From: Cyanidioschyzon merolae
Lineage: Eukaryota
Direction: 5' to 3' (one strand)
Assembly: GCA_000091205.1 (NCBI GenBank)
Contig: AP006487.2
DNA: 64,000 nt
Shown here piece by piece: positions 1-64,000 of the stretch (positions within the stretch are counted from its first letter, which is position 1; the number at the start of each line of letters is the position of its first letter). The position numbers and the translations under genes were made by a program. The notes beneath the pieces were generated by a model. The model worked only from the letters and a program-made list of their open reading frames with translations, made no database searches and was not told where the DNA came from.

Positions 1-1700
1 CATTGTCGACGTTTTCCAGTCATGGTACTGGCCCAGAAAAGTGGGCACTGTTTGAAGGTATGCTACCGTTCAGAGAGAACACGAGCGATCAAGCGGCGCA
101 CGCGGACGATCGTTACGGGGCGTTCATACGAGCGCGCGGAGGTCACCAACAGTTTCGGTTGTACAGAAGCAAGAAGCGTACATGCACTCACTTCGACTAA
201 GAGTTGTAAACGAAAATCTCCGATATGTCGTGTGGTTGGGTGCCAGGCAATGGCGCTGGAAGCACTGGAGCGCGCGATGACTGCACCCTTGCGGACTTGT
301 GGACGGCGTCCAACGAGTGCGGGAATCGATTCCATACGACTCCCGTAGATGCATTCAGGACGATGCCCTCGCATCAATAGCATGGGTGCTCAATGAAACA
401 GGCAGAGAAAAAGCACCTGAAACAGAGCCGGATACACGAGACGGTGTACGTCAGGCCGAGCGAACATCAGCTGGCGAGAATATTGACGACCAGAGGATTG
501 CAAAAGCGAGATTTCAGGAGCAAAATACCTCGATGTACATCCGGGAATGTCCGGTGTTCGCACAGCGCCCAACAGCTTGGTGATCAACGAACCTTTGAGG
601 GAATCGCGCAGTACTTCGTGTAAACACGGATCTGAAACGCTGAAGACTTGCGATGGAAAACAACAGTGACCATGACAGCGTGTATTTCATCCATGTTTGA
701 AGCAAGACACTTGTATGAGACGGTTCAGCAGTCCAGAATGGCTGCCATGCCCCATATATACACATGGAACGGTTTTCCTAGAAATTCATGAACGAATATC
801 CTGCTCCGTAATTCGACTTGACGATGTACCGACATGCAAAGCGGCGTCCTAGGTGCTCTAGCCTAGACGCCCGCCCCCGAAGACCTGCACGGTGTCGCCC
901 TGCGAGCCTTATTTACCGCACCATACATCCCTGGGATATTTATGATGGCTCCGGCCTTGAAGATCACGCGTTTGTGTGTACGTCAGCAGCGTCGATGCGT
1001 CGCTCTAAAATCCATCTACACAGGTGTTCACGGAATGCTCGGCATTTAAAAGCGAGCCCGCTCAACTTCGTATACAATGTGTCATGCATGTAGACTTGCA
1101 TTTTCGAACGAGATCCGTCATTGGGGCACCAGCTCGAGACTGATCAAGCATCAAGCTTCGTGCACGGTAGACAGGCTGTGCTATGAACGGTTCGGCATTC
1201 GACGCCAGGCGCTGAACCCAGACTTGCGTCACCGTACAGTGCGTTTAGGGTTCCATCAGCAGTGCCTCGTTCTTTGCGTTCGTCCTGCAATTCTCCAGGT
1301 CATAGAAGCGTATCCGCAGCATGAAACTGTTCAGTGTGAGCCGAAGTAGCAACATCCAGCATAGGCATTGAAGCGCGTGTCCTATAGATTCCAAGTGCCT
1401 GTGAGCGCTCCCGCACCGGCGATGCACCTTCGTACGAGGACGCGCTCCATACCAAGTCAGCCGAAACATTTCCTATGAATCAAGTGAGGCAGAACTCGCG
1501 ATTTGTGCACTAATCCAGAAGCACGCTTTCGGGAAAGCTTAGCAACAGAATTCGGGCGATTATGTTTTGGTCTATGGTCGAGTCTTGGCTGGGAATCCCA
1601 GCTACGCAATGGATACCGACGTCAGGGAAAGCGCTAACGCATACTCGGCACTCTACGGATTATATGAACGAGCCGTTGCCTCCAACAGGGAATATGGATG

Positions 1701-2090: not shown

Positions 2091-4087
2091 GCAAGGCCCT
2101 CCCGGGCGATTCCCGGCGCTGTGCGCGAGCCCCGATCGTATGCACGCTGCCGCTGGCTAGCGTCTGAGCCCTGGTACGTTCTCTCCTCCGTCTTGTGCAG
2201 ACGATGCAGCGAGCCGTGCCTAGGATGCTTCAATCAAGTACTGGCCAACTTCGGACCGGGCGCGGGTGCTCGTCAGGGACGACTTTGTGGAAAGCTGGGT
2301 CTCGGCGTTGCAGTGCGTTCCACAGCTGTCAATCGTTGAGTGCTGAGAACCTTTATCAGCCCGCATCTCTGGCGCTGAGAACAGAGAATCGCCAAATCCG
2401 TCGTCTGGTAACGGTGGAGCCAGCGGGCGCGTCTCTTGGACGCACCGTGACAGGGCGCTTCCGCCCGGTTTTGGCGTTGGAACGCGTCGCTGCTGAGGCG
2501 GTCGGTCGGCTGGAAACGCGCAGCTTCACTTACCGCCGAGCTGGATGTACTTCAGGCCTGCTCCAGCTTCTTCTGGATGGAAAAAAAGCTCTAGATGATA
2601 CATAGATTCACCGGTTGGCTCCAGTTCTGCAGAGCGTGTGATGGAAGGCTCTCGCAGAGCTGAGCTGGCCGACATGCTGGCTTGCTGAAACAACTACTGT
2701 ACGCACCAGTGCGGTGTGTTGGTACACTGGCGGAAAAACGTGTGACGATTCGAGATGAAACCAGCAGTGGATAGTTCAGGCTCTCGTGATTAGAATATAC
2801 GCCGTGGGACTTGAAAGTATTTGAGCTCGTCTCCCTCAGGACATGTGCGGCTTCCTGGGTCTGAGGTTTGGAAACGAAGGACCGCAACGATGGGGCATTG
2901 CGCTCTCGAGAAACAAAGCACATTTCATTCGCTACGTTTCCATCATCACGCAGAAACCAGGACGGTAATCAGTACCGAATATCGGGCACTGCGCTTTGGA
3001 AACGACGCAGATTTCGTTGGTTATGTTTCCATTAACACCAAGAAACCATACTGGTCTTTGGTACTGCGGTCGAGGCTATGACACTGCCTGTGGCCCGACA
3101 ATGCCACCATGTTGTCGCCTGGCGGAGCACTTTCCCCTGTGATGCCAATGGATATTTTGTTCTTTTGTGCTGGGCGATCGATGAGCGTACCCAGAGTTCC
3201 CCGCATGCGCAATGATTACCAGCAACTGCAGGAGAGATCTTAGGCATGGTCGGGACGCTTCGGTGTACCTCAACATTCAGAGCAGCTTCTATTTTCGTGC
3301 ATTCGAGCTGAATCGATCCAGCGTACCTTCGGGCGTTGAGTCTCGTGTAGGACGCATGCTGCACCGGTGGACGTGCAGTCGCAGTCGCTTCGATGGCATC
3401 GGCTCGATACTCCGGTGTCTGGTGGAACCTGCGCCGGCGTTCTTCGCAAGCGTGGCCCGAATCAACAGCGAATCCCAAAGAGTCCAGCAAGGACGCGTCC
3501 ACAAATCTAAAGCGTAGCATCCAGTGTTCTACCAAAAAGTGCCAACCTTTGCCTGGTACACGGCGCTGGATCCCAGGAGCAGGCATGAACAGCACCGGCC
3601 TGTTTAAGAGTCCTCGAGTTCTGGCTCCGTGTTCAACCTCATAATGCGCAGCACTAGCGCAACTTTTTTGCCTGCAGCAATGCGAAGGAAAAGCGATAGT
3701 CGCAAATGTGGTATTCTTGAAAGGCCATAATTTTTACCGCATACGCAGATACCGTGAAAGCGTGCTGAGAAGCTATCTCAGGAAATGCACCGGAACACCC
3801 GGAACTCAACTGCAATATTCCCCAGCATATTCTAGTGGAACGTGCATACCAACCAAAATTCGATATCCAAGCAACGACAGGTTGCAGAGCGCAGACGCAC
3901 CAAGTTCCGCGCTTGCCGCACGAGTCTGAATTTGAATGCCACTGATCCGCCCAGCTGGACAACGCATTCGCGCTGCAAACGCTGAGCGAGCTGGTACCGG
4001 TGCCCGCAACGTTTAAACTGTGCTGAGCAGCGCGATACCATATAAATCCACAGCACGCGCGTTGAGCCACTGTCGGTGTCGGCGGTA

Positions 4088-6762: not shown

Positions 6763-8277
6763 CTACGCAATTGCACGTTTACGGCGTACGTATCTTTGCA
6801 CGAGCTCCGCAAACTGCGTCGCTGGACAAGCCCTCTGAATGAACGGATGCGTCAGGAGCCGATCTACGCTCCAACGATCCATGGGTTGCATCGCGAGGCA
6901 GGAGTGTAAAAAGTGGTGAAATTCTGGGCTCCAGCGGGCAGCTTCCGCCAGCTTGGGCGGCCCTCGGGTCGTGATCAGGAACATGGCCCGGAGCGGTGTC
7001 TCTTTGATCCATGGAGGCTCGCCCTCGGCGCATTCTATGGCGAGAATCCCGAGGCTCCAGACGTCAACTTTGTAGTCGTACTCCATGCTTCTGATGAGTT
7101 CGGGCGCCATCCAAAACGGAGTGCCAACGCATGTCGTTCGCTTGTCGCGCTCTGGTGTCAACTGGGCACAATATCCAAAGTCAGCGAGCTTGATGGCCCC
7201 CGACGATTGACCAAGCAGACAGTTATCAGACTTGATATCACGATGGATGCGACGTAGGCGGTGCAGCTGACCGAGCGCAATCAGAACCTCTCGGCAGACA
7301 TAGGCGATCTCTGGCTCCGTCATTCGTTCACCATGCTCTGCCAGATCATAAAGCAAGTCTGTGAGACTGCCCCCGTCCATGTATTCGAGAACAATCCACA
7401 TCGTGTTGCGATGGAGAAACGCCTCGTGAACCTGCACGATGTTCGCGTGGCGAGTGCTATGCATCATGAAGATCTCCTGCTCGAGCGCGCTCATGACCTT
7501 TTCGGACCGAACTTCGACCCTTTTCATCGCAACAATTTTGGTTGGATCGGTTCGAGAGGCTGCCACATAGACAACGCCCATTGCACCCTCGCCCACTTTA
7601 CGCAGGCGCACGTAGACGTCGCTGGGGTCTCGTTCCTGAATGGCGGGAAAGCGTCCCGAGGCCCTCAGTACAGGCTCGCCCCCGGTTTGGCGTGCATCTT
7701 CGGGGCTCGTCTCAGTGAGCAGCTTCGCAGCCGAGTCATCCTGGTGGAGCGCGGTCCGTTCGTTGCGCTCTTTTAAGGCTGCGACTTGGCTGGGATGGTG
7801 CGTTGGCGACGCCGCCCCAGATCGACGCAAATGAAAGTCCATGATATCGCGTACGACTTGCGGATTCGTCAAGACCTCTGTGCGACTGATACCGTTGCCA
7901 ACGAGTAGGTGCTCCCACTCGCGTGGGAGGCCAGAAAATCCCGTCTCAGAGGTGAGGTCGCGGCGCACAGTCACTTTCTTGCGAACCTTGATCGGTGTCC
8001 CTATCTGGGGTGTTTCCTCAGTACTGTCGGATACATCGTTTTGTTTCGGTGCTGTGGGCTTCATATTCGGCTTTCTGGTGCTGGCCGTCCCCGGATCCGT
8101 CGCGTTGTCTGGCGCGTGGCGTGCACAAGACGGCTTGCGCTTCACTCCAGTCGAGGCGTGCGTCGGGGTTCTCGTCAACGCGCTTAAGGCAGCGAGACCC
8201 GCTAACGCGCGCAGTGCGCCTTCAGGTTCAGCAGAGGTCTCCGGGCTCTTGGAGCTGCGCTTCACTCGTGTCTTCAT
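6763..8277 (-). CDS. Ser/Thr protein kinase, STE20/PAK family
   Basis: Kinase motifs present: GEGAMGVVY, VAMKRV, HRDIKSDNCLL, DFGYCAQL, GTPFWMAPE, DVWSLGILAIE. An N-terminal regulatory region carries a CRIB-like FSGLPREWEHLLVG. ATG verified at 8275-8277 (minus strand). Confidence 0.75.
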   Translation of the reverse strand: MKTRVKRSSKSPETSAEPEGALRALAGLAALSALTRTPTHASTGVKRKPSCARHAPDNATDPGTASTRKPNMKPTAPKQNDVSDSTEETPQIGTPIKVRKKVTVRRDLTSETGFSGLPREWEHLLVGNGISRTEVLTNPQVVRDIMDFHLRRSGAASPTHHPSQVAALKERNERTALHQDDSAAKLLTETSPEDARQTGGEPVLRASGRFPAIQERDPSDVYVRLRKVGEGAMGVVYVAASRTDPTKIVAMKRVEVRSEKVMSALEQEIFMMHSTRHANIVQVHEAFLHRNTMWIVLEYMDGGSLTDLLYDLAEHGERMTEPEIAYVCREVLIALGQLHRLRRIHRDIKSDNCLLGQSSGAIKLADFGYCAQLTPERDKRTTCVGTPFWMAPELIRSMEYDYKVDVWSLGILAIECAEGEPPWIKETPLRAMFLITTRGPPKLAEAARWSPEFHHFLHSCLAMQPMDRWSVDRLLTHPFIQRACPATQFAELVQRYVRRKRAIA

Positions 8278-9894
8278 CCGCAGTCACCGAAAGCCTTCAC
8301 AAACGCAAGCACAATGCGGGCGCTGGAACGCACCACCGGAGGTGCTCAGCTTCCGGAGGATCCCGATACACGTCGCGATGGCGGACACGCGGGCATTCGA
8401 ACAGCGGCCGCCGTCGGCATCGCGCACACCCAGCGCACACACTGCAACGGCCGGGGTGCGGCGGCGCTCATCAGGGACGGATCAGCGCCGGCGTGCTGTC
8501 CTCCGGCGCGGGGCTGTCGACAGCCGTAGAGCGCCCGCCGTTCCCGCGGCTGGAGAGGCGGCGGCGCTCGCAGTTCCCGCTGCACCCTGGTGCGAGTCCG
8601 GGAGCCTGCACCTTCAGGTTGCAGCACTGAGGGCGGTGGGGATCGGCGTGGGCGCGCCCAGCTCCACAGCATGGCAGGTCTCTGCATGGAGTGCATTTGC
8701 ACAAGAAAGTCGCATCGAGGACTCTGCGTATCTGGACTGCATGTGCGCTTTGCCGATACACGTATACCAGAATAAGACGGAACAGGTCCACGCAGCGAAC
8801 ACGGGCGTGCCTAATAAAGTTTTGATCGCTTCCCGTAAGAGTCAACACAAGATTTTGTGCGTATTTTTGTGACTTGTTATTTTTATTGCTCTTTTTTTGC
8901 TGAATTTCAATGTGCTGGTCTCTAATGTGTCTGCAGCTCCGTTTGTCAGCAGTCGAAGAATGCTGATGGCAGCGTTCTCCTCCCGAGTTCGCAGCATTCG
9001 ATTCTCATTCACGCATTTCGAACAGGCAGGCTGAAGTTGCGATCTCGGCTGCGCTTGTCATGATCATATCCTTTGTAGACAGCCTCAGTGCGCCCTTTGC
9101 AGCATGAACCTTGGCCACGGTCAGTGATTACCGTACGTGCACGACACGACACCTCTTCCGAAAAATGCCCTGTGCCGCACCAAGGAATGCTTCGCTGATC
9201 GGTGTGCGCGTTTGACTGGTACAGAGGGCCCGATGTGTTCCCTGTATTCGTTTTCGCGCCCGGTGCCGTGTTCTCCGATCATGGGCTTGCTCATGGCGAT
9301 CCTTCCAGGGTGTACGCTATCCCCTGCACGCACACGCTGTAACATTGGATGGGCGATTTTTTTGGAACGCGATCTTGTTCATGATGGAGCGGTTGGCGGA
9401 AGGGAATTCCAGGATGGTGAGCAATAGAAAAAATTTAGAGTCGTTTATGTTCAGTTCCTAGAACGCAGTGACATACTCTCTACTCTGAGTAATCGCCGCA
9501 ATGACTGGTGTGCAGCACGAGTCGTTGCTTCCGCTGTGAGCGGCGAGGCTGGATATCGGCGTCATGGCTGGTGCCTGCTCGCAGACGGGTGCTGCGATGG
9601 TCACCTGGCACCGCTTATGGCACCCAGAGAACCGCTTCTGCTGCACGTTCGAACAGACGACGGAGCCAGCGGACCTCTGTGACGACCTCGAAAGCTAGCC
9701 AGGTATTCCAGCTCCTTTGGCGGTGTTCCGCGACGGTTTCATCTCGGCAATGATGCAGCGGATGCACCTCGAGGACAATGGAAACCTACGCTTATCGAAG
9801 TCTGAGCGCGTCTTGTCGCAACGAACTCCAGAGACTGGCATGTTTCGCGTCTCGCATGATACGCTGGCCTCGTTTTAATGTTGCACCTCATTTG

Positions 9895-10700
9895 TGTTCC
9901 GCTTGCAGGTGCGTGTCATCAAGTGCTTCCTCGCGGGTTATAGCGGACGTGTTCAAAGAGCGTCCATTTTCAAAAATAAACTATCCTAGGGAGATGTGTA
10001 TGTATGAAAATCGGGGATCCTGATGTGCTAGTGTCGCCGGTTTCAACAGAAAAAACGAAAAATTCTCTTCTCACCGACCATCGAGCGAAGGAGAGCAAGT
10101 TTTATGAAAAAGTAGAAAAAGAGAGGAACGGCGGGTGAAAAGTTTTTGTATGCCTGATGTGACGATTACGAGACTGTAACGGGACAGAGGGCACACTGAC
10201 GAAGGCGCCTTGCATTGATGAGTCCCATCAGAGGCAGCAAACGCATGGAATTCGTGAACAGAGACTTGAACTCCGCCATCAAAATCAGACCATTTGTGTT
10301 ACAAAAGGCGAGGCGCGCGGAACTTACGTTAGCGAAAGGTTTGGGACAGCCTCTCAGGTTCGAAGTGTACACGGGACAAATTGAAACCGATATCTGGTTG
10401 CTGGTCAGAAAAAGGCTTCGAGGCGCCTGTGAGTGCGTATCATTTTCCCCTGTCGAGCCGACGCTCTCTGTGGTGCGGCATAGCCGTTCTGTCTCCGTGC
10501 AAGGACCGCATCGGCCCTGTAGACGCTATCGCCGACGCTCTGGGCATGCACTCGGCGCACGATAGAACGTACGGAACGACCATTATATCCGAGAGAAAGT
10601 ATGGGTTACGGAACGTGGAAGTAAGGCGTGGAATGAGGGATACCTTACAGCGCGCTGATGACGAGCGCAGAATCCGAGAACGCTCGCCACAGCAACCACT
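9895..10700 (+). mobile_element. Internally deleted (non-autonomous) copy (a) of the TnpB/Fanzor-like repeat family F, carrying the 3' module X
   Basis: Homologous at nucleotide level to 22497-23050 and to 16640-16990. A 5' block starting caggtgcgtgtcatcaag is shared only with copy (c). The 3' ~260 bp (10440-10700) is module X, shared with the LINE-like element. Confidence 0.45.
10215..10565 (+). pseudogene. C-terminal remnant of TnpB/Fanzor-like ORF (RuvC-III-like motif) running into module X
   Basis: KRMEFVNRDLNSAIKI fits the TnpB RuvC-III signature (D-x-N-A-A-x-N-I) with the Asp retained. It is homologous to KRMEFVKRGFNAAINLRRCAVL (copy b) and GDFDVTSNIRRCAVL (copy c). The reading frame continues into X (VRHSRSVSVQGPHRPCRRYRRRSGHALGAR). 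Confidence 0.35.
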
Positions 10701-13700
10701 TTGGCATTTTTTCACTGACAAAACGTTTACTTAGGCCAGCGTTCTCCGATTATGCGCTTTTTTCTTTTCTTTCTTTTTTTTCAGTGCGAGGTGAGGTATC
10801 CATCAACCCCCTACCTCCATGTTACATTACCTATACTTCGTCTCGGATATTCTGGTCGTTTCATACGTCCTATCGTGTGTGCCTAGTACCTGCCGTTCCG
10901 TATTCGCGTCTGCGCTTGAACCGCTGGAGCAGATAGCTCATAGGGCTAAAACAGCTTTTCTATACCACAGAGGGCGTCGGCTCGAGGTGTGCTTCATCCG
11001 ACGTAGAATCGGGTCTCGTCGTCAGTTTGTGCTCGTACAGTCTGCGGATGCAGGCTTGCCTTCGCTGCACGACACGCTGGAGAAACTTGGTTGTTAGGAT
11101 GAATTCTGGGAGCTGCCTCTCTCCTTCGTGATCATGCATGGAATGCATTGTTGTCGGTTGGCTATGCGGATTTGTGCTTGACACCCACTACAGAAGGAAG
11201 GCGTAGAGAGCACTAAACCCGTGTGCGCATCCGATCCGCTGGACCTTCCGCCTAGAAGGTAGCACGTGAGTTTGTTGGCCACTAATGAGCACTGAGGATC
11301 TGTTAGCGAACCATCAGTTGCCAGTGCTGCACTCAGAGTGAGTGTCCGGCCTTCGACTATCACGGTGTTGCCGAGCTGCTGCTGTCCTTCGAGGAGCTCG
11401 CTGCGCTCCTGCTTCTAGCGCGGCCACTGTAGGCCTAAATATGTCAGCGTCTCGGGGATTTCGTCTCGATAGCAGGTACAGTGTGACTCCCAGTGCGATT
11501 CCAGGGTTCCTATCCGGCTTAGAGCCGGTGCTGGTAGCCAGGAGCCACCAACGCTGATTTTGGCGAGCCACTGGGTACCTCGAGCAAGTCCCGGGAATTC
11601 CAGCGCCTCCCACCAGTAATTGCATGTGTATGCTAGGTTGTAGTTCCGGTATAGAGTCAAGCCGGCGTTACTCGCGCGACTGGTACTGTATCTACGTTCC
11701 CATATTGTTGTTCGGACCGTTCGCTTGAGGCGACGGGAGAATTCTATATTCCTGGGGAATGATTGGGTAGCGTGTTTTCGCCTAAGAGGCGCTTCAGCCA
11801 AATCTGCGCTGATTTCATCCAAGTGATCTTGCGGTGCGTTGGGGTCTGCATGGATATCCGACTGAACCAGGTGTTCATGGTTGGCCCTTTGCCCCATATG
11901 CGTGCCCGGCAGCCTGCTGCTATCGCCTCTGTCGAGGGTATTTGGAGTTCAAGTCCGAGTGCCAGCAGGTTGGTTGCTCTGCTCTGCATTGAGCATCCAA
12001 CTACAACGAGTCGCATTGCCCTGTTGGCGGCTGTCTGCAGACGCGAGGCATTTGTGTGCTTCATGCCGCACCATTCAGCACCACAGGTCGCAGGCTGGAT
12101 GATACATATCCTTAGTGCGCTGGTACGGATTGCTAAGGGGATAGAGGGGTCGGATAAGAATGGGCATGCGATCGCTGTACGTCTATGCATCTTGGCGATC
12201 ATCTCGTTAACGTGTGCCTTTTCGTCGAGCGTCGGCGTGAGACAGACCCTAGGTAGCGATATTTTTCCACGATTGGAATTTCCTGATTCTGCAACCGCCA
12301 CGAGCGATTGCGAATGCTCTGCGAGTCTCCATGGATGGCCATGACGCCGCACTTCGATGCTCCTATGCTCATCTCCCAGCGATCGGCCCAGGCGCTGACT
12401 TGTTCCATGCTAGCCGCAAGCGTTTCCGGGGCGGGTGCCAACAGCACGACATCGTCCGCAAATAGAAGGCCTGCGAGGCGGTTCCCATATGGGCGCTCCC
12501 CATCGGGCATCTCCACAGTCTATCCACGGCACCTCAAGCCCGTATTGTCTGTAGTTGTTAAGCAGATCGTTGATGAAGATGTTGAAAAGGAGCGGGGATG
12601 CAGGATCGCCCTGTCGCAGTCCACGGCGGATTCTTATCGAAGGGGTTCTTGAGCCGTCGCCTAGTCGGATGCGCATCCACGAGTCTGCATAGAGCGCACG
12701 GAAGAACGCTAAGCACTTTGCGGAGACTCCGGCTCGTTCCATCTTCATAAATGGAGCCTCATGCGGGAACGTGTCAAAGGCCTTTTGGAAGTCGACGAAG
12801 CATACGTAAGTTGGTTGTTGGTCGCTAATGAAGCGACGTTGCACCACTTCAATGAGGGTCAGGGCATGGTTCATGCACTCCTCGTGGCTCCGGAATCCAG
12901 CCTGTTCTGGGGCGAAGAACTTGCGTTCCTGGAGGCCGCTGTGGATACGGTTCGTGAGCATGGCGCGAAGTAGCTTCATGATTGACGGGATGAGGCGCAT
13001 AGTCCGGTAGATGTTCATGTCTGTGTGTGTGTGGGAGTCCTTTTTGAGGATCGGTACGACCTCGACAGCCCTCCGTACATCTGGGATGTACGCTTCTTCA
13101 AACATGCGTTGAATGAGCTCCAGAAGGCGTTTGCCTAAGATTGTGTCAGGTTCATCTGGTATCGATGGTGTCCCTGTTGTCCCGTCTTTTGGGGTCGCCA
13201 GTTTCATCCACTCCGCAGGGATACCGTCGATGCCAGGTGTTTTGCGATTGCTTGAGCATAGCAGAGTCCGAACAGATTCAGGCCAGAAAATTGGGTCGTT
13301 CCATTCCGGTACCGGGTCGAGGCGCGGTAGTTCTGCAGCATATCGGTGCCAATAGATTCGGTCTTAGCAGTGCCCAGTTGCGTCTTCATGTAATTCTGTG
13401 CCGTGGTCCGTCCAGGCCTCATTCACTGAGGCACGCTCCGTCCTCAGCGCTTCCTTTTAACAGTTGGTGTGAGCCCCAAGCACTTTCTTGGTGGGTCCAG
13501 TCTCGATCGGATGTAGCCTGGGGTTTCATCTTCGTTGGTGCTCTTCAGCATAGATTCCGCCAGGGAGGCCATTTTGCGGTTTCGATCCTCTCGTTTGTCT
13601 TCTCTGGAAAGTTTCTTCGTTCTTTTGATAGCTTCCTCATGTTGCGCCTGTAGCGCCGGTAGCGCTGCCTTCGCTTCCTTGTCTCCGGCGTTGGCGCGTA

Positions 13701-14955
13701 TGGCGGTGCGGTTGACAATCTTGTTGAGTCGGTGGCATTCATGAATCCGAGTTTTGGTACGTCGTTTGAGGTACTGCGGCTTGCTACTGTTGTGTTCAGG
13801 TGCAAGCAGTCCCAATTTTCTGGCAATCTTCTGATTCCCATCTACAAACTCGCGTGCCAATTGGTCTGAAGATTTGTATTCACGGCTTTTCGGATCTTCA
13901 GCGCTGTGAGCAGGTGCCTGGGATTGGCGACGGCTTTCTTGAGTTCCAGCTGGGGTGCCCTTTCGGGGGATACCTTGTGATGGGCTCGTTTGGGAGTTCT
14001 TCTTTCTATTCTTCTGTTTTTTCTTGCTGGTCTACTTCTTCTTCGGGCTCTTTCCTGAGCTGCTTTCTCTGGTTATTTTGCATTTAAGGGGATCATGAGG
14101 TTTCTGTGTCTCTTTCTCCGTACCTCGTTGGGTCTCTTTTCCAATTGTAGAGTCCTCGACTTGTATCAGTTCTTCATTACTGTACTGGTAATTCGATATC
14201 TCGTGGTTAAATACCGAGGCGATCCCGCTAATATTCCATGATGCGAAACCTATCGAGTCGTAGCGCATAAGGGAATAGGAGTAACGCTGCGGTACTCCAG
14301 AGATACGTTGTCGATTTAGACGCAGCTTCCACAGGGTGTGTGAGAGCACATGCCACCATTGCCTCCTGCATTCCAGTCGTTCACTGAGTGTCTGCCGCAG
14401 CGCTAGCGTAGAATCAGATGTACATTAGTCAAGGTCGATTCGAATGCGAACTTTGTCTTTCCGGACGCGTGAAGCTACCCTCAACCATTGGGAAAAGTCT
14501 GCAAACCACCATTTCAGCGGCTTTGTATCCGCTCCCCAAACACATAGGCGGGCAAGTCGCTTATTCCACTTTCGACAGTGAGCATACTGCCAGCTGTCTT
14601 CCAAAGTATCCGCCGAGATTGTTTCCAAAGTTGAGGTAGGTACTCAAGGTAGAAGGTGAAACTGAGCCCGAATTCAGGGATGGATCCAGTATTTGTGCCC
14701 GAACCTGCAGCGTTGTTTCGGGAGCAGCGGATGACTGCGCTCAGAATTATCGTCATCATTCTCTGCTACTGCCTACGCCCCTCCGTTCGTTGCGGTCAAG
14801 GCCCCTGGCGTGGACTTCCTTCGCAGTCGCTCAAGCACCCCGCGTTAACCCACTTTCAGAGGTTCTCCGGAAAGACTAGACCCCTTAGGCGGACGTGGTT
14901 TGTGGGGCTTTTAAGATAGTGGTTCCTTGATAAATAGTTTGCGACTAGTTTGCAT
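10655..14955 (-). mobile_element. LINE-like non-LTR retrotransposon E, copy 1 (frameshifted; ORF1-like region, RT, 3' module X)
   Basis: A ~600-bp 5' region is conserved with copy 2 (ends gataaatagtttgcgactagttt at 14931-14955). RT fragments lie in three frames on the minus strand. The 3' tail 10713-10965 is module X. No APE endonuclease domain is visible upstream of the RT. Confidence 0.7.
12199..13207 (-). pseudogene. Reverse transcriptase domain of LINE ORF2 (frameshifted)
   Basis: LINE RT motifs are present: MRLIPSIMKLLRAMLTNRI (motif 0/1), FVDFQKAFDT (A), GLRQGDPASPLLFNIFINDL (B), LLFADDVVLLA (C, FADD). The domain is split over ORFs 12410-13207 and 12199-12516, so frameshifted. Confidence 0.8.
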
Positions 14956-15159
14956 CGCGCTCGGTGAGCGCACCTCGGAGATCGGGCAGGCATGAGACGC
15001 TACGCGCATGCCACTGTTGAAGGGAAACACGTGACCTTGATCAATAGCGTGTTGTTCTGCTGTAAAAGTCGGATTCCCGTTGAGGGCGTAGCAAAGTATA
15101 GTTTTCAGTTCATTTCTGTTTCAACCCTCAAGTAAAAATACTCGAGTGTTTTTTCGCAG

Positions 15160-15167
15160 TATATAAG
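15160..15167 (+). promoter_or_regulatory. TATA-like box (tatataag) in AT-rich island upstream of the TnpB-like ORF
   Basis: tatataag sits in an unusually AT-rich stretch (15120-15300) ~210 bp upstream of ATG 15377. This is sequence-only evidence. Confidence 0.2.
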
Positions 15168-15223
15168 AGAAGCGTTCAAAGAGCATTCTTTTTAAAAAAA
15201 CTAAAAAAAGGAAAAGTATGTAG

Positions 15224-16990
15224 GAGCAAGTCCACGATCCTGGAGGCCCACTGTCGCAGGCTGCCAGAAAGAAAACAAAAAACAGTGCCGAGTCCAGAAG
15301 AACAGGGAGAGAGAAGAAGAACCGAAGAGGGGAGGCCCTACGTCGAAGGTGGCAAGAAAGACGACTGTACAACGAGATGGTGGTGAAAGCCTTTCTTCTT
15401 GGACATATCAAGGATCCCTACAGGGAAAAGTTGCGAGACGCTATCGAAAAACGTGTCGACTCGTATTCCGAGAGTATTATCAAGGCGTCGTCAGGGCTGA
15501 TGCATTTGGCGAGGGAGATGTATCGCGACATGGCGCACATGGAAACAGTCGAGATTCCGGACGAGTTTCTCGACATGACCTTTATTTGTCAGCTAATGCT
15601 TGGTACAGCGGAAACGCGGAAGGAAAATGTGCTAGTGCACGCCCTCCACGAAGAACATACCTTTTACAGCTTCAATGGTACTCGATACAAGGTGACGGAG
15701 ATATTTACATCTATGGGGCGATGAAGTACCTCACGAATCTGAAGAACCATTTGACAATGAACCTCGAACGTTTCACGGTACGCGCCGTGTGTGCACTCTA
15801 CCCGGGCCTATCTCGCAAAGGAAAATGGGCGATTATCAATGGCATCACGAAAGATCGTAAGCATGAAGATGAGACGGATTTCGTTGACAAGAAGGCGTCA
15901 AACGAGAGCACGAATGAAGCTTCTGTAATCCGTGCTGCTATTCAAGAGCACCGTGCAATCCTGGGACTGGATTATCCAGCAGAAAAGATATCAGAGTTGA
16001 AAAAAGATAAGGAAACATACGATCGCCTCATTCTACGGTATTTCGTGTTTCTGGACCAAGAACTCGAACGCGAGGCGGAGATGAAGGTGAATAGGGGAAA
16101 AATGAAGAGTGGGAGAGACGGAAGGCTGTCCTAACGGGGAAGCGCTTCAACGTGGTTCCATTGTGCAACATCAAGTCAGATTTTGTGACCATCGGCTCCG
16201 GCGTCCTTTACGGCATCATGAAGCAGATCAGTCCGGAGTTCAGTGTCAGCAGGGAGGACTTCACCGGCGAAAACCGGGAGACGTACTGCAAGAGTATCTT
16301 CGATTTCAAACGTCTGAGAGTGAGCAAGCAAAAGTTGTTTACTGGGATGATCGTAACCGATGGAGTAGAATTGTGTGCAAACTATCGGCGGTTGAAGAGA
16401 GATCGGCCAGTCCCTCCCTCGGCTGCGCCCGTGACGAAGGATCAAGAAAACAAAGAGGTGTATCCTGCGACGCAGGAGGTGGAGGATAGAGACCTTGTCG
16501 TTGACGTGACCAAGGATGAAGAAAGGGAGGAGGCGGATCTTGCGACGCAGGAGGTGCAGGATTACGACCTTGTCGTAGGCGTGGACCCTGGGAATACGAA
16601 TGTCCTAACCATCGCAGCACCGAAGCGTGCGGAAGATGGAAAAGTGCCAGCGGAATCCTGAAGATATACAAAAGTACGGACCGCTGACGGAAGGGCGAAT
16701 GGAAAGGAGAGCGAAAGTTCGAGGATTGCTTGCATCAGTAAGTACAACCAGTGATGGCAAGAAACGGATGGAGTTTGTGAAGCGAGGTTTTAATGCCGCA
16801 ATCAATCTACGGAGATGTGCGGTGCTAGAGAATAAACCTCCAGACTGGACAAGAAGGAACCTTGTTGGACAATCTCTCAAAGGTGAACTATATGAGAGAA
16901 AGCTGGAAGCAGTAGTGGGTAGCCAGTCCAAAAAGACGGGGGGGGGGCGTCTGCACGTCAGCTGGAGACGATTTGTCTAAGGCGCGTTCG
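15224..16990 (+). mobile_element. Longest copy (b) of repeat family F with TnpB/Fanzor-like ORF; 3' truncated within the start of module X
   Basis: An open frame runs from 15224 with a basic, NLS-like leader (RKKTKNSAESRRTGREKKNRRGEALRRRWQERR). The 3' part is homologous to copies (a) and (c) but lacks their ~100-bp segment. The RPL37 gene follows at 17118. Confidence 0.45.
15377..16980 (+). pseudogene. TnpB/Fanzor-like (OMEGA-type RuvC nuclease) gene, degenerate
   Basis: The reading frame is split over frames 2, 1, 0, 1, with switches near 15700, 16100 and 16640, each at an A-run. The RuvC-I-like block is [22 protein letters not shown] (compare TnpB vGIDLGxxxxat). The RuvC-III-like block is KRMEFVKRGFNAAINLRRCAV (compare TnpB DxNAAxNI). 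Only ~70 aa separate them, so RuvC-II and the zinc finger are absent, consistent with an internally deleted pseudogene. Confidence 0.4.
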
Positions 16991-17117
16991 CCGCCATTGC
17001 TGCGTACTGCCGGCGTCGTTCGACTTCGAACGGCGTTCGTGACCGAAGCTCATCCGCGGATCCAGCTGCACGCCGCTGCTTCATTCAGGACGCGTTGTAT
17101 AACAACGTCAGGGAACC

Positions 17118-17438
17118 ATGACGAAAGGAACATCTTCCAAGGGTCGCCGTCACGGCAAATCACATACACTCTGTATCCGTTGTGGACGACGATCGTACCA
17201 TATCCAGAAAAGTACCTGTGCGAGCTGCGGGTACCCGTCGCCGCGAAAGCGGACTTACAACTGGAGTTTGAAGAGCAAGCGGCGACGCACTACAGGAACT
17301 GGGCGCATGCGGTACTTGAAGACGGTTGCTAGACGGTTTCGAAACGGGTTCCGCGAAGAGAACACTCGTAAGGCGATAAAGAGGACAGTGGCTGCCGCTC
17401 CCGCACAGGAGAGCGGCCAGGAAGCAGCGAGCTCTTGA
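17118..17438 (+). CDS. RPL37: 60S ribosomal protein L37 (eL37)
   Basis: [68 protein letters not shown] carries the eL37 C4 zinc ribbon and conserved termini. ATG verified at 17118. Confidence 0.85.
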
Positions 17439-22350: not shown

Positions 22351-22496
22351 AGGTAGTGCAAAGAACACACCGTACCGGTAAGTCGCGCGTGCCGTGGAGG
22401 CGAACGCTGTCGTTCATTCGGCAGCGCTCGAGGCTGGCACCGACTTGCCCGACTAGATGCACTACTTTTTGCTCTTTGACCACAGTGAGATTGATT

Positions 22497-23050
22497 AGTC
22501 AGGTGTGTGTCATCAAATGCCTTATTCGGTTTATAGCAGATGGGCTGCAAAGTGCGTTCATTTAGAGAAATAGAGAATATAAGATATAGGTATGGAGATT
22601 GAAGTCGAGGATCCTGGATTGCCTCTGTCCACGGGTGTCGGAAAAGAACGGGAATTTTCTCATCTTTTCGACGATCGAGCGAAGAAGACCAAGAAGAGGG
22701 GAGATGGACCACAAAAATGTGTTTGCCCGACGGGGCGATGACGAGAATCTAATCGCACAGAGGGCACGAGTTCTGGCAATCCCTGCATTGATGCGTTGCA
22801 CCAGATGAACTGCATAGAACGGCTCGTGAACGGAGACTTCGACGTCACAAGCAATATCAGGAGATGTGCGGTGCTGAAAACGAGACTCGCGGAGCTGACG
22901 CGAACTAAATTCGAGTGGCAGCCTCTAATACCCCCAGTGTGCCTGGATAAAAACCGCAACCGATGGCAGTCGGCGGATAGAAAAAGACTGGGCGGTGTCT
23001 GCGCGTGGGCAGCTATATGTACTCTCGATGGTGGTAAAACATTGCACGTT
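22497..23050 (+). mobile_element. Internally deleted copy (c) of repeat family F (TnpB-like C-terminal remnant)
   Basis: The 5' block gtcaggtgtgtgtcatcaaatgcc is homologous to copy (a) 9895-10010. It then joins at ggatcctg to the region homologous to 16650-16990. The ORF 22796-23056 carries VNGDFDVTSNIRRCAVLKTRLAELTR. Confidence 0.4.
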
Positions 23051-24596
23051 TTATAAATCATATGCCGAAGAGCAAGTTCGATTTGCAGCGTATGGAACCT
23101 AGTAGCGTTTCTTAAGCAAGTCTGGTCGTTTTCTACGTAATCAGAAGCATTTGCTCCGCCATCGCTACCTGAATGGAATCATTGATCCTGCATCATCAAC
23201 ACTGATTCCGTTGCACAGGACGTACGTAGAGCGCAATGATCACCGTGTGACGCCATGGCTCGCCAAAGCTCCAGGATCCGAGCACTGTGCAGGGACCAGC
23301 GAAGCTGCCGACTTTGTGGTTCCTCAAATGATAACACCTCGATTCGCGTCGAACGGTCTTCTGATCCACCAAAAAAATTTGGTGGGTCGTGATTTTGCGT
23401 TCTCCAAGCACGCCTCCATACACTGCTGCATCAGAGAACCCACTCGAAATGATGCCGTGTCCGTTATTGAATGACGCTTCCGAGCACTGGGCCTGCATGA
23501 AGCCGGTAGTCGATCCCTGAACGCTTCATGCGCGGACACGTACTATGCATAAGACTCGGAAACTCCGGGCTGCACAGGTCCATTGTCTGATGCTTCCAGC
23601 ATCAAAGTCGATCCCCGCTGACTGCCTAGATGACAAGCGAGATCCGCGTACAAGCCCGAGATCCCGTGCATCCAGCATCAAACGCGATTTCGCTCTACTG
23701 CCCAGAAGCGCAAGCATGAAAGCGTCTTGCTCCCGTATTCGACTGTTCCCGACAATGGTCTCGGGCATATGTTTGCTCCCGAATGAATACACCTTCGTGG
23801 AGCGCGCAGCATAGTGCTTTCTTTCCATCGCGCAAGATCAGAAAAGTCTAACCAGTTCTACCACGGATGCGTGTCGCGCGCTGGGCGTCGTACACGACCA
23901 CGATGCCGTGCATCCACCGATTCTCATGATGCAGACACGGTGTATCGAAGGAGTCGATTCTGAGTAGCCGAACGGTGTCGATACCAGCGCCTGGACCTCA
24001 CCATTTCCGCGCACGCTTCTTCCTTCTTCTATGCCAGCAGCAGCGTTCCTACATAAAAAACCCGCGCCATGAGACCTCTATCCGTCTACTGGGATAGCAT
24101 AGGCCGGCCGCACTTGCTTGGCCGGGCACATGCGCTCGATTCGAAATCCTGTCAAAGCACAGTGCCATCCACGTAACCTGCAAAAGAGCGGAGCTTCTCA
24201 GTAAAGCCTGTGTTTGCCGCCTGCCCGAACGAGGTATCAGAAACGTGCTCACCGACGCGCTGCGCACCGGCGCCTTCCAGCGCTGGAAGCAGTGCGCCTC
24301 GAGTGCACGGGTGCGGCGCCTGCCTGCCTGCCTGCCGGCTCCTCTCTATTCCGCTAGCGAACCAAGCACCCTGCTCTTTCCCCAGACACCTTGTCCACTG
24401 TGGAGGCCGCTCAGCTACAACTCCGACGTGCAGCGTCTGTCCACGATCAACACGAGTACGCACCTTGTGAAGGGTACAGTCGCGAGATACGTATGCTGGG
24501 CGCCAGCGCTGGCAGGTAGGCGGCGCCCCGCGCATTCTCTGCACACCCGAGGCGCGTTTTCGCGACTTTCCGTTACGTGAAGTTGGTGTCGGGTTC

Positions 24597-35423: not shown

Positions 35424-35745
35424 GTGCGCAGCCGACTCTCGACCGGCCCCGTCTCAAGCAAAGTCCTGAACAATACCCGTATGTTTTTGATGCGCAATGG
35501 ATCGCGTGCCAATCCGCTAGCATTGACCAAAAGACCAGATTCCACGTTGAAAGAACGATGCCGCTCGCCGACGCCCTCTGTAGTGCGGCAAACCGGGTCT
35601 GTCTCCATACCGCATTCGCACCAGCGTCATGGGCGCTATCGCGGACGATCAGGGCAGGCACTCGGCGCACGATAGAACCTACGGAACGACCGGGACATCC
35701 GAACGGAAGTACAATTCATGGAACGTGAATGTAGGGTGCACGATG
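35424..35745 (+). mobile_element. 3' fragment (d) of repeat family F: degenerate TnpB-like C-terminal remnant plus module X
   Basis: NNTRMFLMRNGSRANPLALTKRP aligns with KRMEFVNRDLNSAIKIRP. The segment SPTPSVVRQTGSVSIPHSHQRHGRYRGRSGQALGAR and nucleotides 35570-35745 (cgacgccctctgtagtgcggca...gcactcggcgcacgatagaacctacggaacgacc) are homologous to module X at 10440-10620. Confidence 0.4.
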
Positions 35746-35765
35746 ATGATGATGATGATGACGAC
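35742..35765. repeat. (GAT)6-(GAC)2 trinucleotide microsatellite
   Basis: gatgatgatgatgatgatgacgac lies immediately after the X fragment. Confidence 0.9.
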
Positions 35766-36174
35766 CAACACTGTCCCGATGGGCAATACGCATCCCGGAA
35801 ACTAGGATCCATGGTCCATGGAAACGTTCCGTGTCCATCAGGGAAATCGCCTTGCTCCGCCAGCGTGATCATCAATGTCCATACTATTCCAATAAAGTTC
35901 CATATGATGCTGCCTGCCCATGCGCATCGATGTCGCCAATTGCGATCCCGGCCTGCGCCGGCCTCGACGCCCGCCAGCCTGTGTCCTATCATCGATTCAG
36001 CGTCGGGCGCAGCGGGACTCCTGCGATCATCGGCTGGCGCGTTCGTCCACGTGTGCCTAGCGTACGCCACTGGCAGAGCGTCCGGGAACGTTCACGTGTT
36101 TTCCTGGGGCGCAGGTCAGTTGACTCTAGTTTGCGTGTGTAAGCGAAGCCTCAATACATTGTATCCTCTGTTTC

Positions 36175-43447: not shown

Positions 43448-44567
43448 GCGTATATCTTAAAGTTTGGGTCTCTTATGATTGTCCTTATCGAGACCAGCCT
43501 TTGAGGGCATTTTATGCGATTGTATCCTTTCTGGTGCTCTTATCTCCGGTTTCAATACGCCGGACGCTTCTTTCCCTGCAGCTCCGTTGCAGACCGTCGA
43601 AGCCTGTGGGGTGCAGCAGGAACGTCCTTATTTCGCTCTGCATGGCTATTGTCGATGCGGTTCGTGTACGGGTGGAAGCTGCGCCTTGCGGTTCGTTTGC
43701 AACATGATCCTCTTCCTAAACAGCTTCCGCGTGTTCTTCGCAGCGTTTGCTTGTAGCAGATCTCGAGTTTTATAATGTGACCATTCGTATCTCCTCCATA
43801 CAGTGCACTGCGACGCCTAGAGGCTTGCTTTGCTGGCCTGTACGTGCCCTTGACGTGCTCGGGAGACGTCGCTCGATACCCTCCTCCGTTTCCGCGCCCG
43901 GTGCCGTACTCGCCGTTCACGAGCATCGTCTAGGAGGTTCCCTCGACGAGGGCGCTGTCAGCTGCATGTGCAAGCGCGCACTGCTGCCTTCAGAGGAGGT
44001 TTTTCGGAACGCGATGTTCGCTGTGATGAAATACGTACGTGAAGAGAAAGTCAGGCTTGAGAAGAAGCTGAGAGATCTCGATCCGTGTACATCCCTGACC
44101 CGCGCAGAGCGGTACCGTACTCTGCACTACAAGCGATACCTGCGATGATGCAGTTGCAAACGCATGACCCGTTTTGGTGCAAATAGGAGACACGGGAGCC
44201 TCCGGGAGCATACCCCATGAGAGGTATCAAGCTGCTGTCGAGTGCTGCTTCGTCGATTGCCTCAAACATAGGATTGCTTGTCTTTCGATGTAAATAAGAT
44301 GTTTCGTGTGAGGGATTCAGTTCTGTCTCGAAAAGGGCCGCAGATCGTGCCGCCAATTGGCATCATCGAGCCTGTTTTGCCCGTCATTGCACCAGCACGA
44401 ATAGCAGTGTCCATGAGCTCCCTCGGAGCGGAAACTTCAAAAACTTGAAGCATGCGTGATTCGCGCAAGCTCTGTATGAGGAAACGAGGCGTATGGTTGA
44501 CTGTACGTAGGAATTGTCGGGATGGTATCGACAATGTAAGAAACCTCTGTTTGCGGGCGTAACGAAT
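43448..44567. repeat. 1.1-kb dispersed direct repeat R, copy A (near-identical to 54738-55856)
   Basis: It aligns base-for-base with copy B with a few mismatches over ~1.12 kb. The embedded ORFs (43747-44148, 44262-44720) are duplicated and unrecognised. Confidence 0.9.
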
Positions 44568-61136: not shown

Positions 61137-61209
61137 CCATTACTGCTTCCAACTTTTTCTCATACAGTTCGACATAAAGAGGTTGTCCAATAAAATTTCA
61201 TCTTGTCCA

Positions 61210-63365: not shown

Positions 63366-64000
63366 AGTTTCCTTTTTTTTTGACAAGTCAACCCCGCATC
63401 ATCGGATGCAATGCTGAGGAGCTCTGGACCGCTCGATCGTCGCCTTACCATAATATTTTGGGATGGACAGAGCTGTGTTTGCAGGGAAATCGCCCGCTTT
63501 TAGGCTCTTTCCGGTTATTCAGTTGTGCTCACGAGCTCTGCCCAAAGCACTATGAAACGCGGGGTTCGCATCGCGCGGTGAGCTGAATTGGTGATTGATG
63601 AACTGCTTGCGGGGCCTTGACAGGGTAGCGAGTGTGGAACGCAAACTTTTGGCTGGATGACCTTCAGCGATTGAAAGCGTCATCAAGTTTGCAGTTGTCC
63701 ATGGCAAAGTGCTTCACGAAGCCGCTCTTTTTGACAGCTTTGTGACCACAACGTCGAAGCAGGAACCCACAGTACCGGACCTGATCGACAATAGCGACTG
63801 GTCCGTGGTGCGACTGCTCATCCGACCCGATGTCGGTGCGAAGAACCTGCGCCAGCATGGCATCCTCGATCCGGGTCTTTTGCCGTGGAACATAGAACCT
63901 GCACCGCACGCCATACCGCACGAACGTTCGCTCTGGTCTCGCCTGTGGATGTTGCTCGTTATGGGCGCGCACGAGTCTGGTCTGGATCGTGCAAGGCTCC

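Follow-up and report, generated by a model that had tools for sequence, protein, structure and literature searches.

The 9876–10706 region of the window, by which we mean the whole 64,000-nucleotide stretch of Cyanidioschyzon merolae 10D chromosome 5 analysed here (six of its ORFs exactly match 10D proteins, BAM79380–BAM79395), most probably consists of two unrelated pieces of debris, a deleted and copied relic of the Fanzor1 family CMe-1A and the 3' end of a LINE, a reading to which we assign a probability of about 0.8. The first piece (9876–10452), termed copy (a), would be an old, mutationally dead, internally deleted CMe-1A copy in which the promoter, the ATG and about 45 N-terminal codons run directly into the final ~280 bp of the ORF, comprising RuvC-III and the C-terminus. 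The second (10453–10706) would be the 3' end of a LINE lying tail-to-tail with another, 4.2-kb copy of that LINE. A single deletion event in an older sublineage with its own ~60-nt 3' tail, most likely through slippage or aborted gap repair, would have created the short product, which may then have been copied at least twice, as three copies suggest, all of them having since drifted to ~65–74% identity. Copies of this type thus appear to have been mobile, and nothing in 9876–10706 is likely to be functional.

The repeat family to which copy (a) belongs is the published Fanzor1 family CMe-1A; it is already known and represents no new element type. An earlier sequence-only reading of this DNA had called it family F, a multi-copy family of TnpB/Fanzor type, and the homology to CMe-1A bears this out. 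CMe-1A is described in Repbase with ~150 copies and a 3169-bp consensus (Bao & Jurka 2013, Mob DNA 4:12, PMC3627910), and the consensus used throughout was taken from supplementary file 2 of that paper. The published CMe-1 protein begins MEKEVEDPGGPVSP...MVVKACLLGHIKDPYKEK (PMC3627910), in agreement with the translation of copy (b). The family is very probably also the 253-copy, 3.2-kb interspersed element with a WSV486-like ORF reported by Nozaki et al. 2007 (PMC1955436). Blocks of the consensus match copies (a), (c), (e) and (f); with a more sensitive alignment, identity to (a) and (c) is 67–74% (z 29–37). As in the published family, the copies are old (~80% to the consensus) and lack terminal inverted repeats, and no target-site duplications were detected across composite boundaries. 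Four copies had been listed, of which (a), (b) and (c) hold but (d) has no Fanzor homology; further family pieces lie at 3–604, 39481–40543, 50468–51689(-) and 61018–61254(-).

Full-length relatives display invariant D484-P-G (RuvC-I), D655-E656-x-R-T (RuvC-II) and N723-x-D725-x-N-A-A-I (RuvC-III) motifs, with the D...E...D order conserved. Within the window (b) has motifs I and III only, while in the broken frames of (a) and (c) RuvC-III is present and RuvC-II doubtful. The RuvC-III stretch, which all four listed copies were thought to keep, is indeed found in (a), (b) and (c) but not in (d) by nhmmer and tblastn. The sole Pfam match, PF07282 (E=0.23), lies below its cutoff, the NCBIfam search gave no TnpB-type match, a profile search against PDB sequences gave no match and ten diverse relatives searched against Pfam gave no TnpB-related match. 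Because none of these searches returned a significant match, the Fanzor1 class rests on the alignment of Bao & Jurka (2013), which includes CMe-1. The AlphaFold2 model computed from a 36-sequence alignment reached a pLDDT of 38.7, too low for a structure search. Neither an Rfam scan nor a tRNA scan turned up anything in the window.

Copy (a) lies on the + strand and is built from two distant parts of the consensus. Its 5' part (9876–10133) contains a promoter region with a TTATAG box, the ATG at 10006 and ~45 decayed N-terminal codons, and corresponds to consensus 788–1027 (Smith-Waterman, 72% over 236 nt, z=29); a profile HMM made from 34 full-length relatives recovers 9877–10062 at hmm165–349 (nhmmer, E 8e-21). 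The junction and 3' part (10134–10429, consensus ~2805–3083) hold the end of the RuvC-II region, the RuvC-III sequence 'RMEFVNRDLNSAIKI' and the C-terminus in a frame broken by stop codons. Positions 10178–10429 match consensus 2831–3083 (67%, z=37), 10179–10429 match hmm2314–2565 (E 2e-25) and 10188–10346 match residues 699–752 of the 752-aa CMe-1 protein P0001 (48%, E 3e-5, tblastn). There follow the first ~23 nt (10430–10452) of the older-sublineage tail, tail-A, which is then cut off. Similarly, copy (c) (22497–23059, +) comprises consensus 818–1027, then 2809–3088, then a complete tail-A. It is recovered by nhmmer at 22497–22715 (E 1e-15) and 22730–23009 (E 5e-23), and 22823–22912 match P0001 (53%, E 1e-3, tblastn).

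The first match between the two copies, in self-BLAST (9906–10099 against 22500–22693), showed just 69% identity over 199 nt (E 2.5e-8), as might be expected of a chance or low-complexity resemblance. Smith-Waterman alignment of (a) with (c) gives 72% for the 5' parts (z=24) and 67% for the 3' parts (z=37). With z of 12–37 against shuffles over all the shared blocks, profile E-values of 1e-15 to 2e-25 and matches at the protein level, chance resemblance is already refuted as an explanation and its probability is close to nil. In both copies the 5' breakpoint is consensus 1027 and the 3' parts resume at 2831 and 2809, respectively, so that ~1.78 kb of internal sequence is missing from both. A third copy of this type (L017 7939–7415(-), L017s), found on metagenomic contig Ga0207433_10011789 from a related alga in a different context, joins hmm158–400 to hmm2315–2565 and in a three-way alignment stays colinear with both (a) and (c) through the junction. 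The common breakpoints and the same architecture in the third copy argue that the deletion happened once, and the proposal that an internal deletion gave rise to (a) and (c) is thereby borne out. The type is represented by three copies, two of them in the window and the third within related contigs totalling 623 kb.

The position of (a) and (c) on the same chromosome, 12.6 kb apart, would also fit an origin by local segmental duplication or gene conversion on chromosome 5. The self-BLAST and the three-way alignment revealed no flank homology between copies, however, the similarity ending at the element edges, where flanks as old as the copies, at ~70% identity, would still be recognised; this argues that (a) and (c) are copies of a discrete unit. 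Together with the different context of the copy on Ga0207433_10011789, it makes a duplication of the locus extremely improbable.

Several details of the earlier description of (a) and (c) change. The 5' block said to be shared by them and absent from (b) is common to both, but (b) has it too at 15103–15282 (67%, z=23.6), shortly before the start that (b) had been given. The string ggatcctg, taken for the junction, is instead conserved N-terminal coding sequence (ATG..GAG GAT CCT GGA in the consensus, encoding Asp-Pro-Gly), and past it (a) and (c) stay homologous to the 5' region up to consensus 1027. Nor are the last ~550 bp of (b) what is joined there: the actual 3' part measures ~250–280 bp (consensus ~2805–3085) and stops ~85 bp short of the main family's end.

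That missing end is replaced by tail-A, which is common to (c), (f), L017s, L009s and L047s and also forms the 3' end of the full-length element L048; the tail alignment took in (a), (c), (f), L017s, L009s, L047s and L048. By their sequence, (a) and (c) are placed in an older sublineage with its own ~60-nt 3' tail. The CMe-1A family as a whole carries two alternative 3' tails. The 5' block of the (a)/(c) type is nearer to the main consensus (81% over 69 nt) than to L029 (69%), and its tail is of L048 type; with block and tail pointing different ways, there is no unambiguous candidate for the full-length parent. Stop codons occur in all frames of (a) and (c), and their 5' and 3' parts are roughly equally decayed. 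The derivative, with consensus 788/818–1027 joined to ~2805–3085, is absent from the description of Bao & Jurka (2013), and (a) and (c) differ from published CMe-1A in their older sublineage and other 3' tail.

The remaining family members in the window differ in how they were truncated. Copy (b), given before as 15224–16990, really spans about 14952–17040 (+) by consensus and nhmmer mapping and is a CMe-1A Fanzor1 pseudogene with frameshifts, matching consensus 648–2251 and 2767–3145 at 85–88% identity (hmm5–1733 and hmm2249–2659). Unlike the consensus it has no TE-N2 module, a full LINE standing in its place. Its 515-bp internal deletion (consensus 2252–2766) is flanked by the 6-nt microhomology AGATGG (16634–16639) and would represent the same kind of deletion event. 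Copy (e) (61018–61254, -) is a 5'-truncated CMe-1A 3' end, consensus 2934–3140 plus the right end, which directly adjoins the tail of an internally deleted LINE (61255–63370). Copy (f) (50468–51689, -) represents another type of internal-deletion derivative, this one of the L048-type sublineage, in which the 5' ~800 bp (aligned to L048 3965–4904) continue into the final ~260 bp of the ORF and tail-A (hmm2220–2570). It is colinear with L009 2138–812 across its junction and, by mapping to L048 and L029, retains both termini of its parent. Two deletion-derivative lineages, (a)/(c)/L017s and (f)/L009s, are seen, each with its own common junction.

Internally deleted non-autonomous DNA transposons are known from Ds of Ac, KP of the P element and the precursors of MITEs. 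The (a)/(c) type resembles them in having one internal deletion common to several dispersed copies and in keeping 5' regulatory sequence and the 3' end, and the microhomology-flanked deletion of (b) is a further likeness. A MITE-like element that kept two working ends plus an ωRNA scaffold, was mobilised or homed by full-length copies acting in trans and had its 3' region under selection would accordingly show a single common junction without flank homology, would keep the promoter, ATG and 3' ORF end and would reach the tail-A terminus, as (c) and L017s do; the existence of a second lineage, (f)/L009s, that keeps both parental termini would suit it as well. Against it, the first consensus positions present in (a) and (c) are 788 and 818, ~150 bp in from the core left end (~636–648), and the TE-N2 module is missing, so that the retention of both ends claimed for them does not hold and, in contrast to Ds and KP, the parental 5' terminus is lacking. 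The 5' starts of the three copies are spread over ~30 nt (consensus 783, 788 and 818), and with such ragged starts no defined 5' terminus is demonstrated. Of the two, only (c) reaches a true 3' terminus, of the older-sublineage type, the 3' tail of (a) being cut off by the LINE fragment, and relative to L048 both parental termini are kept only in (f)/L009s.

Terminal inverted repeats are likewise absent from (a), (b), (c) and (f), a further difference from the classical derivatives, and across composite boundaries of the family the longest common string averages 3.6 nt against 4.6 nt in controls, which gives no signal of target-site duplication. The orthologous contigs of related strains are 98–99% identical and carry the same insertions, and for this reason yielded no empty sites. 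Copy number, finally, appears low here in comparison with the classical elements, and identity between copies is just 65–74%. The MITE-like interpretation is thus improbable; a further argument in its favour comes from the 3' end of the main family.

In Fanzor and TnpB systems the ωRNA scaffold lies at the element 3' end, the guide comes from 14–15 nt of flank and the RNA must therefore pass the element terminus into the flanking guide (PMC13565253). Full-length CMe-1A members resemble these systems in their razor-sharp right end, in subterminal hairpins with some compensatory changes and in an ORF that runs into the terminal region. In the last ~125 nt of the main family the hairpins have 85.5% of cells paired, and 11 pairs carry changes on both sides, where shuffles give 6.6±2.1 (14 of 500 shuffles reach the observed value). 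In contrast to ωRNA systems, covariation is weak, stability does not exceed that of shuffles and (a) entirely lacks the element terminus. RNAalifold on the whole 293-column 3' alignment gave no pairs, a ribosum-scored sub-block gave a structure with weak or moderate covariation only, and the Rfam scan returned no match. Single-sequence folding of family 3' ends (z-scores of -1.7 to +0.6) was not better than shuffles, nor was that of the 3' parts of (a) and (c) (z=+0.1 and +1.5). The 3'-terminal ~120 nt have a mean per-column identity of 0.70–0.73, against ~0.72–0.86 across the ORF, and are the least conserved part of the element besides the 5' non-coding end, so the 3' end is conserved no better than the rest. 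No ωRNA is claimed, given the weak covariation and the folding no better than shuffles, and the suggestion that a guide-RNA scaffold explains the retention of the 3' region finds no support in conservation, in the equal decay of both parts, in folding or in the truncated end of (a). The 3' Fanzor segment would be kept by descent from one deleted ancestor and not by guide-RNA selection. A scan of (a) for bacterial-type promoters and terminators, which is not applicable to a eukaryote, found nothing.

The second piece of the region, module X (10453–10706, +), is the 254-bp, 5'-truncated 3' end of a non-LTR retrotransposon and lies in the sense direction. Positions 10623–10453 match consensus 86–254, part of TE-N2_CMe, at 81% and inverted; module X is also the reverse complement of 61341–61544 (76%) and an inverted copy of 10781–10894, the LINE's own 3' region, and a tail remnant at 10664–10684 is 90% identical to the LINE tail. 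Module X had been described as part of the Fanzor 3' region, shared by (a) and (d): the sharing is confirmed (10457–10626 against 35567–35736, 75%), but module X is a LINE 3' end unrelated to the Fanzor 3' region. Copy (d) (35553–35828, +) is likewise a LINE 3' end/TE-N2_CMe fragment (consensus 10–264 inverted, 73.6% over 276 bp) and gives no match to the Fanzor core with nhmmer --max at E<=100 or tblastn at E<=1. Module X and (d) thus match both CMe-1A consensus 10–264 and the 3' region of the LINE at 10707–14951, and are inverted relative to the placement of TE-N2 in the CMe-1A consensus.

That LINE (10707–14951, -) is a 4.2-kb non-LTR retrotransposon with its 5' end at 14951 and its A-tail at 10707–10712 (T6 on the + strand). 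It separates (a) from (b), adjoining the left end of (b), and encodes a reverse transcriptase at 12199–13207 (RVT_1, E 3e-19 and 3e-6). Positions 10707–11965 correspond to L001 4402–5667 (89.5%) and 13157–14951 to 61549–63370 (87%); since 10707–11965 and the sequence from 14952 onward are contiguous in L001, 11966–14951 is extra LINE sequence. The common LINE 3' end occurs in copies of 254, ~555–635, 1266, 2100 (internally deleted) and 4245 bp, and a reverse transcriptase, a 3' A-tail and a 5'-truncated series, all features of non-LTR retrotransposons, are thus present together. TE-N2_CMe is listed in Repbase as an unclassified element of 635 bp and ~70 copies, and 26 class I elements were counted in C. 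merolae (Nozaki 2007, PMC1955436). The LINE 3' ~555 bp match TE-N2 consensus 4–282 and 457–534, related loci have A-runs after the TE-N2 tail and the LINE tail ends in A6 or longer, which indicates that TE-N2, published as unclassified, is an antisense, 5'-truncated LINE 3' end with A-tail. In L026, inverted LINE pieces flank the Fanzor on both sides. The idea that module X might be the terminal inverted repeat of a DNA transposon acting as carrier was dropped, module X being a LINE 3' end with the reverse transcriptase upstream. A LINE-like tail on Fanzor (SINE-like mimicry) was also rejected: local alignment of the LINE tail with 46 Fanzor right ends scored 13.3, against 11.6 for shuffles and 12.1 for internal windows.

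Module X stands in Fanzor orientation, begins within 23 nt of the Fanzor piece and runs to the LINE 3' terminus, and a 5'-truncated LINE piece 3' of a Fanzor piece is the order that would fit a single chimeric retrocopy, made when LINE reverse transcriptase switched template onto a Fanzor transcript. LINE ends, moreover, very often adjoin Fanzor sequence in related loci. Shared ancestry outweighs the argument from order, however: (c) and L017s have the same deletion, contain no LINE piece and continue into tail-A, which (a) follows for ~23 nt before it is interrupted. The LINE fragment in (a) would thus be a later insertion or truncation, and an origin of (a) and module X as one chimera is very improbable.

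The association of LINE ends with Fanzor sequence follows a pattern among related loci. In ~27 of 40 non-redundant loci the distance from a LINE or TE-N2 end to one and the same left-end position is at most 13 nt. At least five junction types occur there, namely TE-N2 antisense, full LINE antisense, LINE truncated at 2987 antisense, LINE A-tail sense and A-tail at core position 74. In these loci the Fanzor right-end flank is always unique. The left end might be a recurrent in-vivo nick or break that captures LINE cDNA, or the Fanzor core might be co-mobilised with LINE modules, a proposal that we regard as speculative and rather unlikely; a break at the left end could serve to prime LINE cDNA or to capture it, in both orientations. 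The (a)–X–LINE–(b) arrangement may be one instance of such a rule.

For annotation the outcome is routine, the blocks being masked as CMe-1A, TE-N2_CMe and LINE fragments. Users of the locus should note that the short element is not a MITE, that module X is not a guide-RNA module and that (d) is not Fanzor. The deletion lineages, the two alternative tails and the LINE ends at the Fanzor left end are of modest value to transposon specialists. If the left-end rule were true, TE-N2_CMe would be reclassified as a LINE fragment and the rule would provide the first mechanistic handle on CMe-1A transposition. In a genetically tractable, homologous-recombination-proficient thermoacidophilic alga, the LINE link could bear on the mechanism of Fanzor1 transposition.

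Family F is, judged by comparison of consensus and protein with the literature, the already known Fanzor1 family CMe-1A. Six ORFs of the window are identical to C. merolae 10D proteins BAM79380-BAM79395, and copy (b), translated over three frames, gives a protein with 'VGVDPGNTN' and 'RMEFVKRGFNAAINL'. This stitched (b) protein retrieved 103 relatives from hot-spring metagenomes, one full-length 752-aa form (P0001) among them, in which the D-P-G, D-E-x-R-T and N-x-D-x-N-A-A-I motifs are invariant. CMe-1A is the one Fanzor1 family reported for C. merolae, with ~150 copies each ~80% identical to a ~3-kb consensus, without terminal inverted repeats, with target-site duplications given as undetermined and with a 5' 635 bp identical to a second repeat, TE-N2_CMe (Bao & Jurka 2013, PMC3627910). 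Against its 3169-bp supplementary consensus, (b) is 85-88% identical across positions 648-2251 and 2767-3145, and the published CMe-1 protein agrees with the (b) translation. A 253-copy, 3.2-kb, WSV486-like repeat forms ~5% of the C. merolae genome (Nozaki et al. 2007, PMC1955436), and we infer that it is very probably CMe-1A; white spot syndrome virus has a Fanzor1 in the table of Bao & Jurka. A Pfam search gave only PF07282 at E=0.23, leaving TnpB membership without independent confirmation. NCBIfam (P0001 and P0087) and PDB searches found no match to the family protein, ten relatives together with P0001 and P0087 showed no significant match to Pfam TnpB-type models, and the AlphaFold model (pLDDT 38.7) provided no independent TnpB confirmation. 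The Fanzor1 lineage of P0001 is large (2314 cluster representatives at E<=1e-3, 1019 at E<=1e-10). Directly before RuvC-I lie in-frame 75-bp (25-aa) tandem repeats (window 16430-16579; P0001 residues ~380-480) with a motif of roughly 'ATQEVxDNDLVVD..KxEE', present as two units in (b) and differing in unit number between relatives.

All-against-all depth among related loci (80 collected, 60 non-redundant) delimits a core of ~2.6 kb, from ~330 bp 5' of the ORF to ~150 bp beyond the ORF match; its 3' boundary is razor-sharp, and the flanks downstream are unique. A profile HMM (hmm) built from 34 full-length cores was searched against the window and the related loci. The flank just past the right end is biased, its first ~9 nt reading Y-G-N-T-G-N-N-G-G over 46 loci (e.g. 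L028 4576-4584), with G at +2 in 31/46 and at +5 in 29/46; it often resembles TGTTGTTG or GGTGGTG. The bias reflects a target preference, a constraint close to the guide or an element that is a few nucleotides longer. One class of loci with common upstream sequence carries, ~700 bp before the core left end, solo copies of the final ~108 bp of the element (hmm 2555-2662) in the same orientation (L034 3873-3967; L044 420-528; L059 3827-3937; L078 2021-2131).

The sequence-only reading had counted four F copies, which is partly right. Copy (b), placed at 15224-16990, actually spans about 14952-17040 and carries a 515-bp internal deletion (consensus 2252-2766) between 6-nt repeats AGATGG. The 5' block held to be absent from (b) is present there at 15103-15282 (67%, z=23.6); the block contains a TATA-like box, the ATG and first codons, and 'GGATCCTG', taken for a junction, encodes Asp-Pro-Gly within M-E-K-E-V-E-D-P-G-G. 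Copy (a) consists of a 5' part at window 9876-10133 (consensus 788-1027, 72%) and a 3' part at 10178-10429 (consensus 2831-3083, 67%), and copy (c) of a 5' part at 22499-22732 (consensus 818-1027, 74%) and a 3' part at 22730-23006 (consensus 2809-3088, 68%). The 5' part ends at consensus 1027 in both, and a third copy, L017 7939-7415(-), is colinear with them across the deletion junction. On this alignment the three copies are products of a single ancestral deletion of ~1.78 kb, the product of which was then copied. Neither self-BLAST nor three-way alignment found flank homology between copies of this type, and segmental duplication as their origin is therefore ruled out.

The proposal that (a) and (c) retain both ends in a MITE-like manner is not supported, since the core left end lies at consensus about 636-648, ~150 bp before the start of either copy, and the tail of (a) is cut. 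Both are without the TE-N2 module. In every short copy the match to the main family ends near hmm 2565-2573, past which a different ~60-nt tail (tail-A) is common to (c), to the further window piece (f) and to the metagenome copies L017s, L009s and L047s. This alternative tail is the 3' end of the divergent full-length sublineage L048, and in (a) it is interrupted after ~23 nt by module X. The short (a)/(c) copies are ancient deletion derivatives of an ordinary kind rather than functional elements resembling MITEs. A better fit is provided by (f) at 50468-51689(-) and L009s (L009 2138-812(-)), which share one common deletion differing from that of (a)/(c), joining the L048-type 5' ~800-950 bp (L048 3965-4904) to the last ~260 bp (6779-7037) plus tail-A, and which are a true both-ends-retained derivative of an L048-type parent. 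Two more very old Fanzor relics, visible chiefly at the protein level, lie at 3-604(+) and 39481-40543(+) (tblastn E 3e-10 and 1e-9, 27-36% identity; nhmmer E 2e-5 for the piece 40219-40543).

Fanzor ωRNAs are 3' transcripts reaching 14-15 nt into the flank (PMC13565253), and retention of the 3' region had been tentatively ascribed to a guide-RNA scaffold. Hairpins occur within the last ~125 nt of full-length relatives, the terminal one being kept despite sequence change (TTCGA/TCGAA vs TTTTTC/GAAAGG). A ribosum-derived 3' structure has 85.5% of cells paired, with 11 pairs changed on both sides vs 6.6±2.1 in shuffles. RNAalifold on the full 3' block gave no consensus structure, and 3' folding energies in the family are no better than those of shuffles; formal support for a conserved 3' RNA structure in the family is weak. 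Rfam and tRNA scans of the window returned nothing. The scaffold explanation is not borne out, as the 3' terminus of the element is conserved less than the ORF, and in (a) and (c) the 5' and 3' parts have decayed equally and the 3' parts give no folding signal. To judge by the shared deletion, the 3' piece is kept by descent from one deleted ancestor.

Only ~80 bp (window 17037-17118) separate the right end of (b) from the start codon of the intronless RPL37 gene (17118-17438), a gene that is presumably highly expressed and may therefore have its promoter inside the 3' end of the Fanzor copy. The start codon of a divergently oriented PP2C-like gene lies ~35 bp from the beginning of (c), which is upstream of it (window 22462-22497); the 448-aa product of this gene is called on the orthologous contig L082 6966-8312(-). 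A 1.1-kb sequence is directly repeated at 43453-44568 and 54738-55856 with 97.5% identity at a distance of 11.3 kb, a duplication far more recent than the LINE and Fanzor copies, and a 130-bp unit occurs in three tandem copies (97-98% identity) at 1700-2089.

The minus-strand element at 10707-14951 (4.2 kb) is recognised from L001, where the counterparts of window 10707-11965 and of the sequence from 14952 on adjoin each other; it is a LINE with a reverse transcriptase (ORF 12410-13207, minus strand) and an A-run at its end. Module X (10453-10706) repeats this element's own 3' region in inverted orientation, reaching its tail, and corresponds to consensus 86-254, inverted. Copy (d), claimed as an F copy, has no Fanzor homology whatever and is consensus 10-264, inverted. 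TE-N2 consensus 4-282 and 457-534 match the 3' ~555 bp of the LINE (window 10707-11261) at 76-81%, which identifies X and (d) as fragments of the LINE 3' end. At the outer end of TE-N2 in related loci the LINE tail motif is followed by A-runs of variable length. From these matches TE-N2_CMe, listed as unclassified (Bao & Jurka 2013, PMC3627910), looks like the antisense, 5'-truncated 3' end of a reverse-transcriptase-encoding LINE.

A LINE or TE-N2 end lies <=13 nt from the same Fanzor left-end position in about 27/40 non-redundant loci of the set L001-L081, in at least 5 junction configurations. The left-end neighbours comprise 14 antisense TE-N2, 6-7 full antisense LINEs, 1 antisense LINE truncated at 2987/4245 and 5-6 sense LINEs whose A-tail meets the left end. 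The right-end flanks of the cores are always unique. In the window, junctions involving such LINE ends fall at 10706/10707, 14951/14952 and 61254/61255. No target-site duplications were found at the composite boundaries of the family, and no similarity between the LINE tail and the Fanzor right end. The recurrent abutment at the left end suggests that this end may be a recurrent break or priming site, or that composites may be co-mobilised, and the association of the LINE with the Fanzor left end is the one lead worth following.
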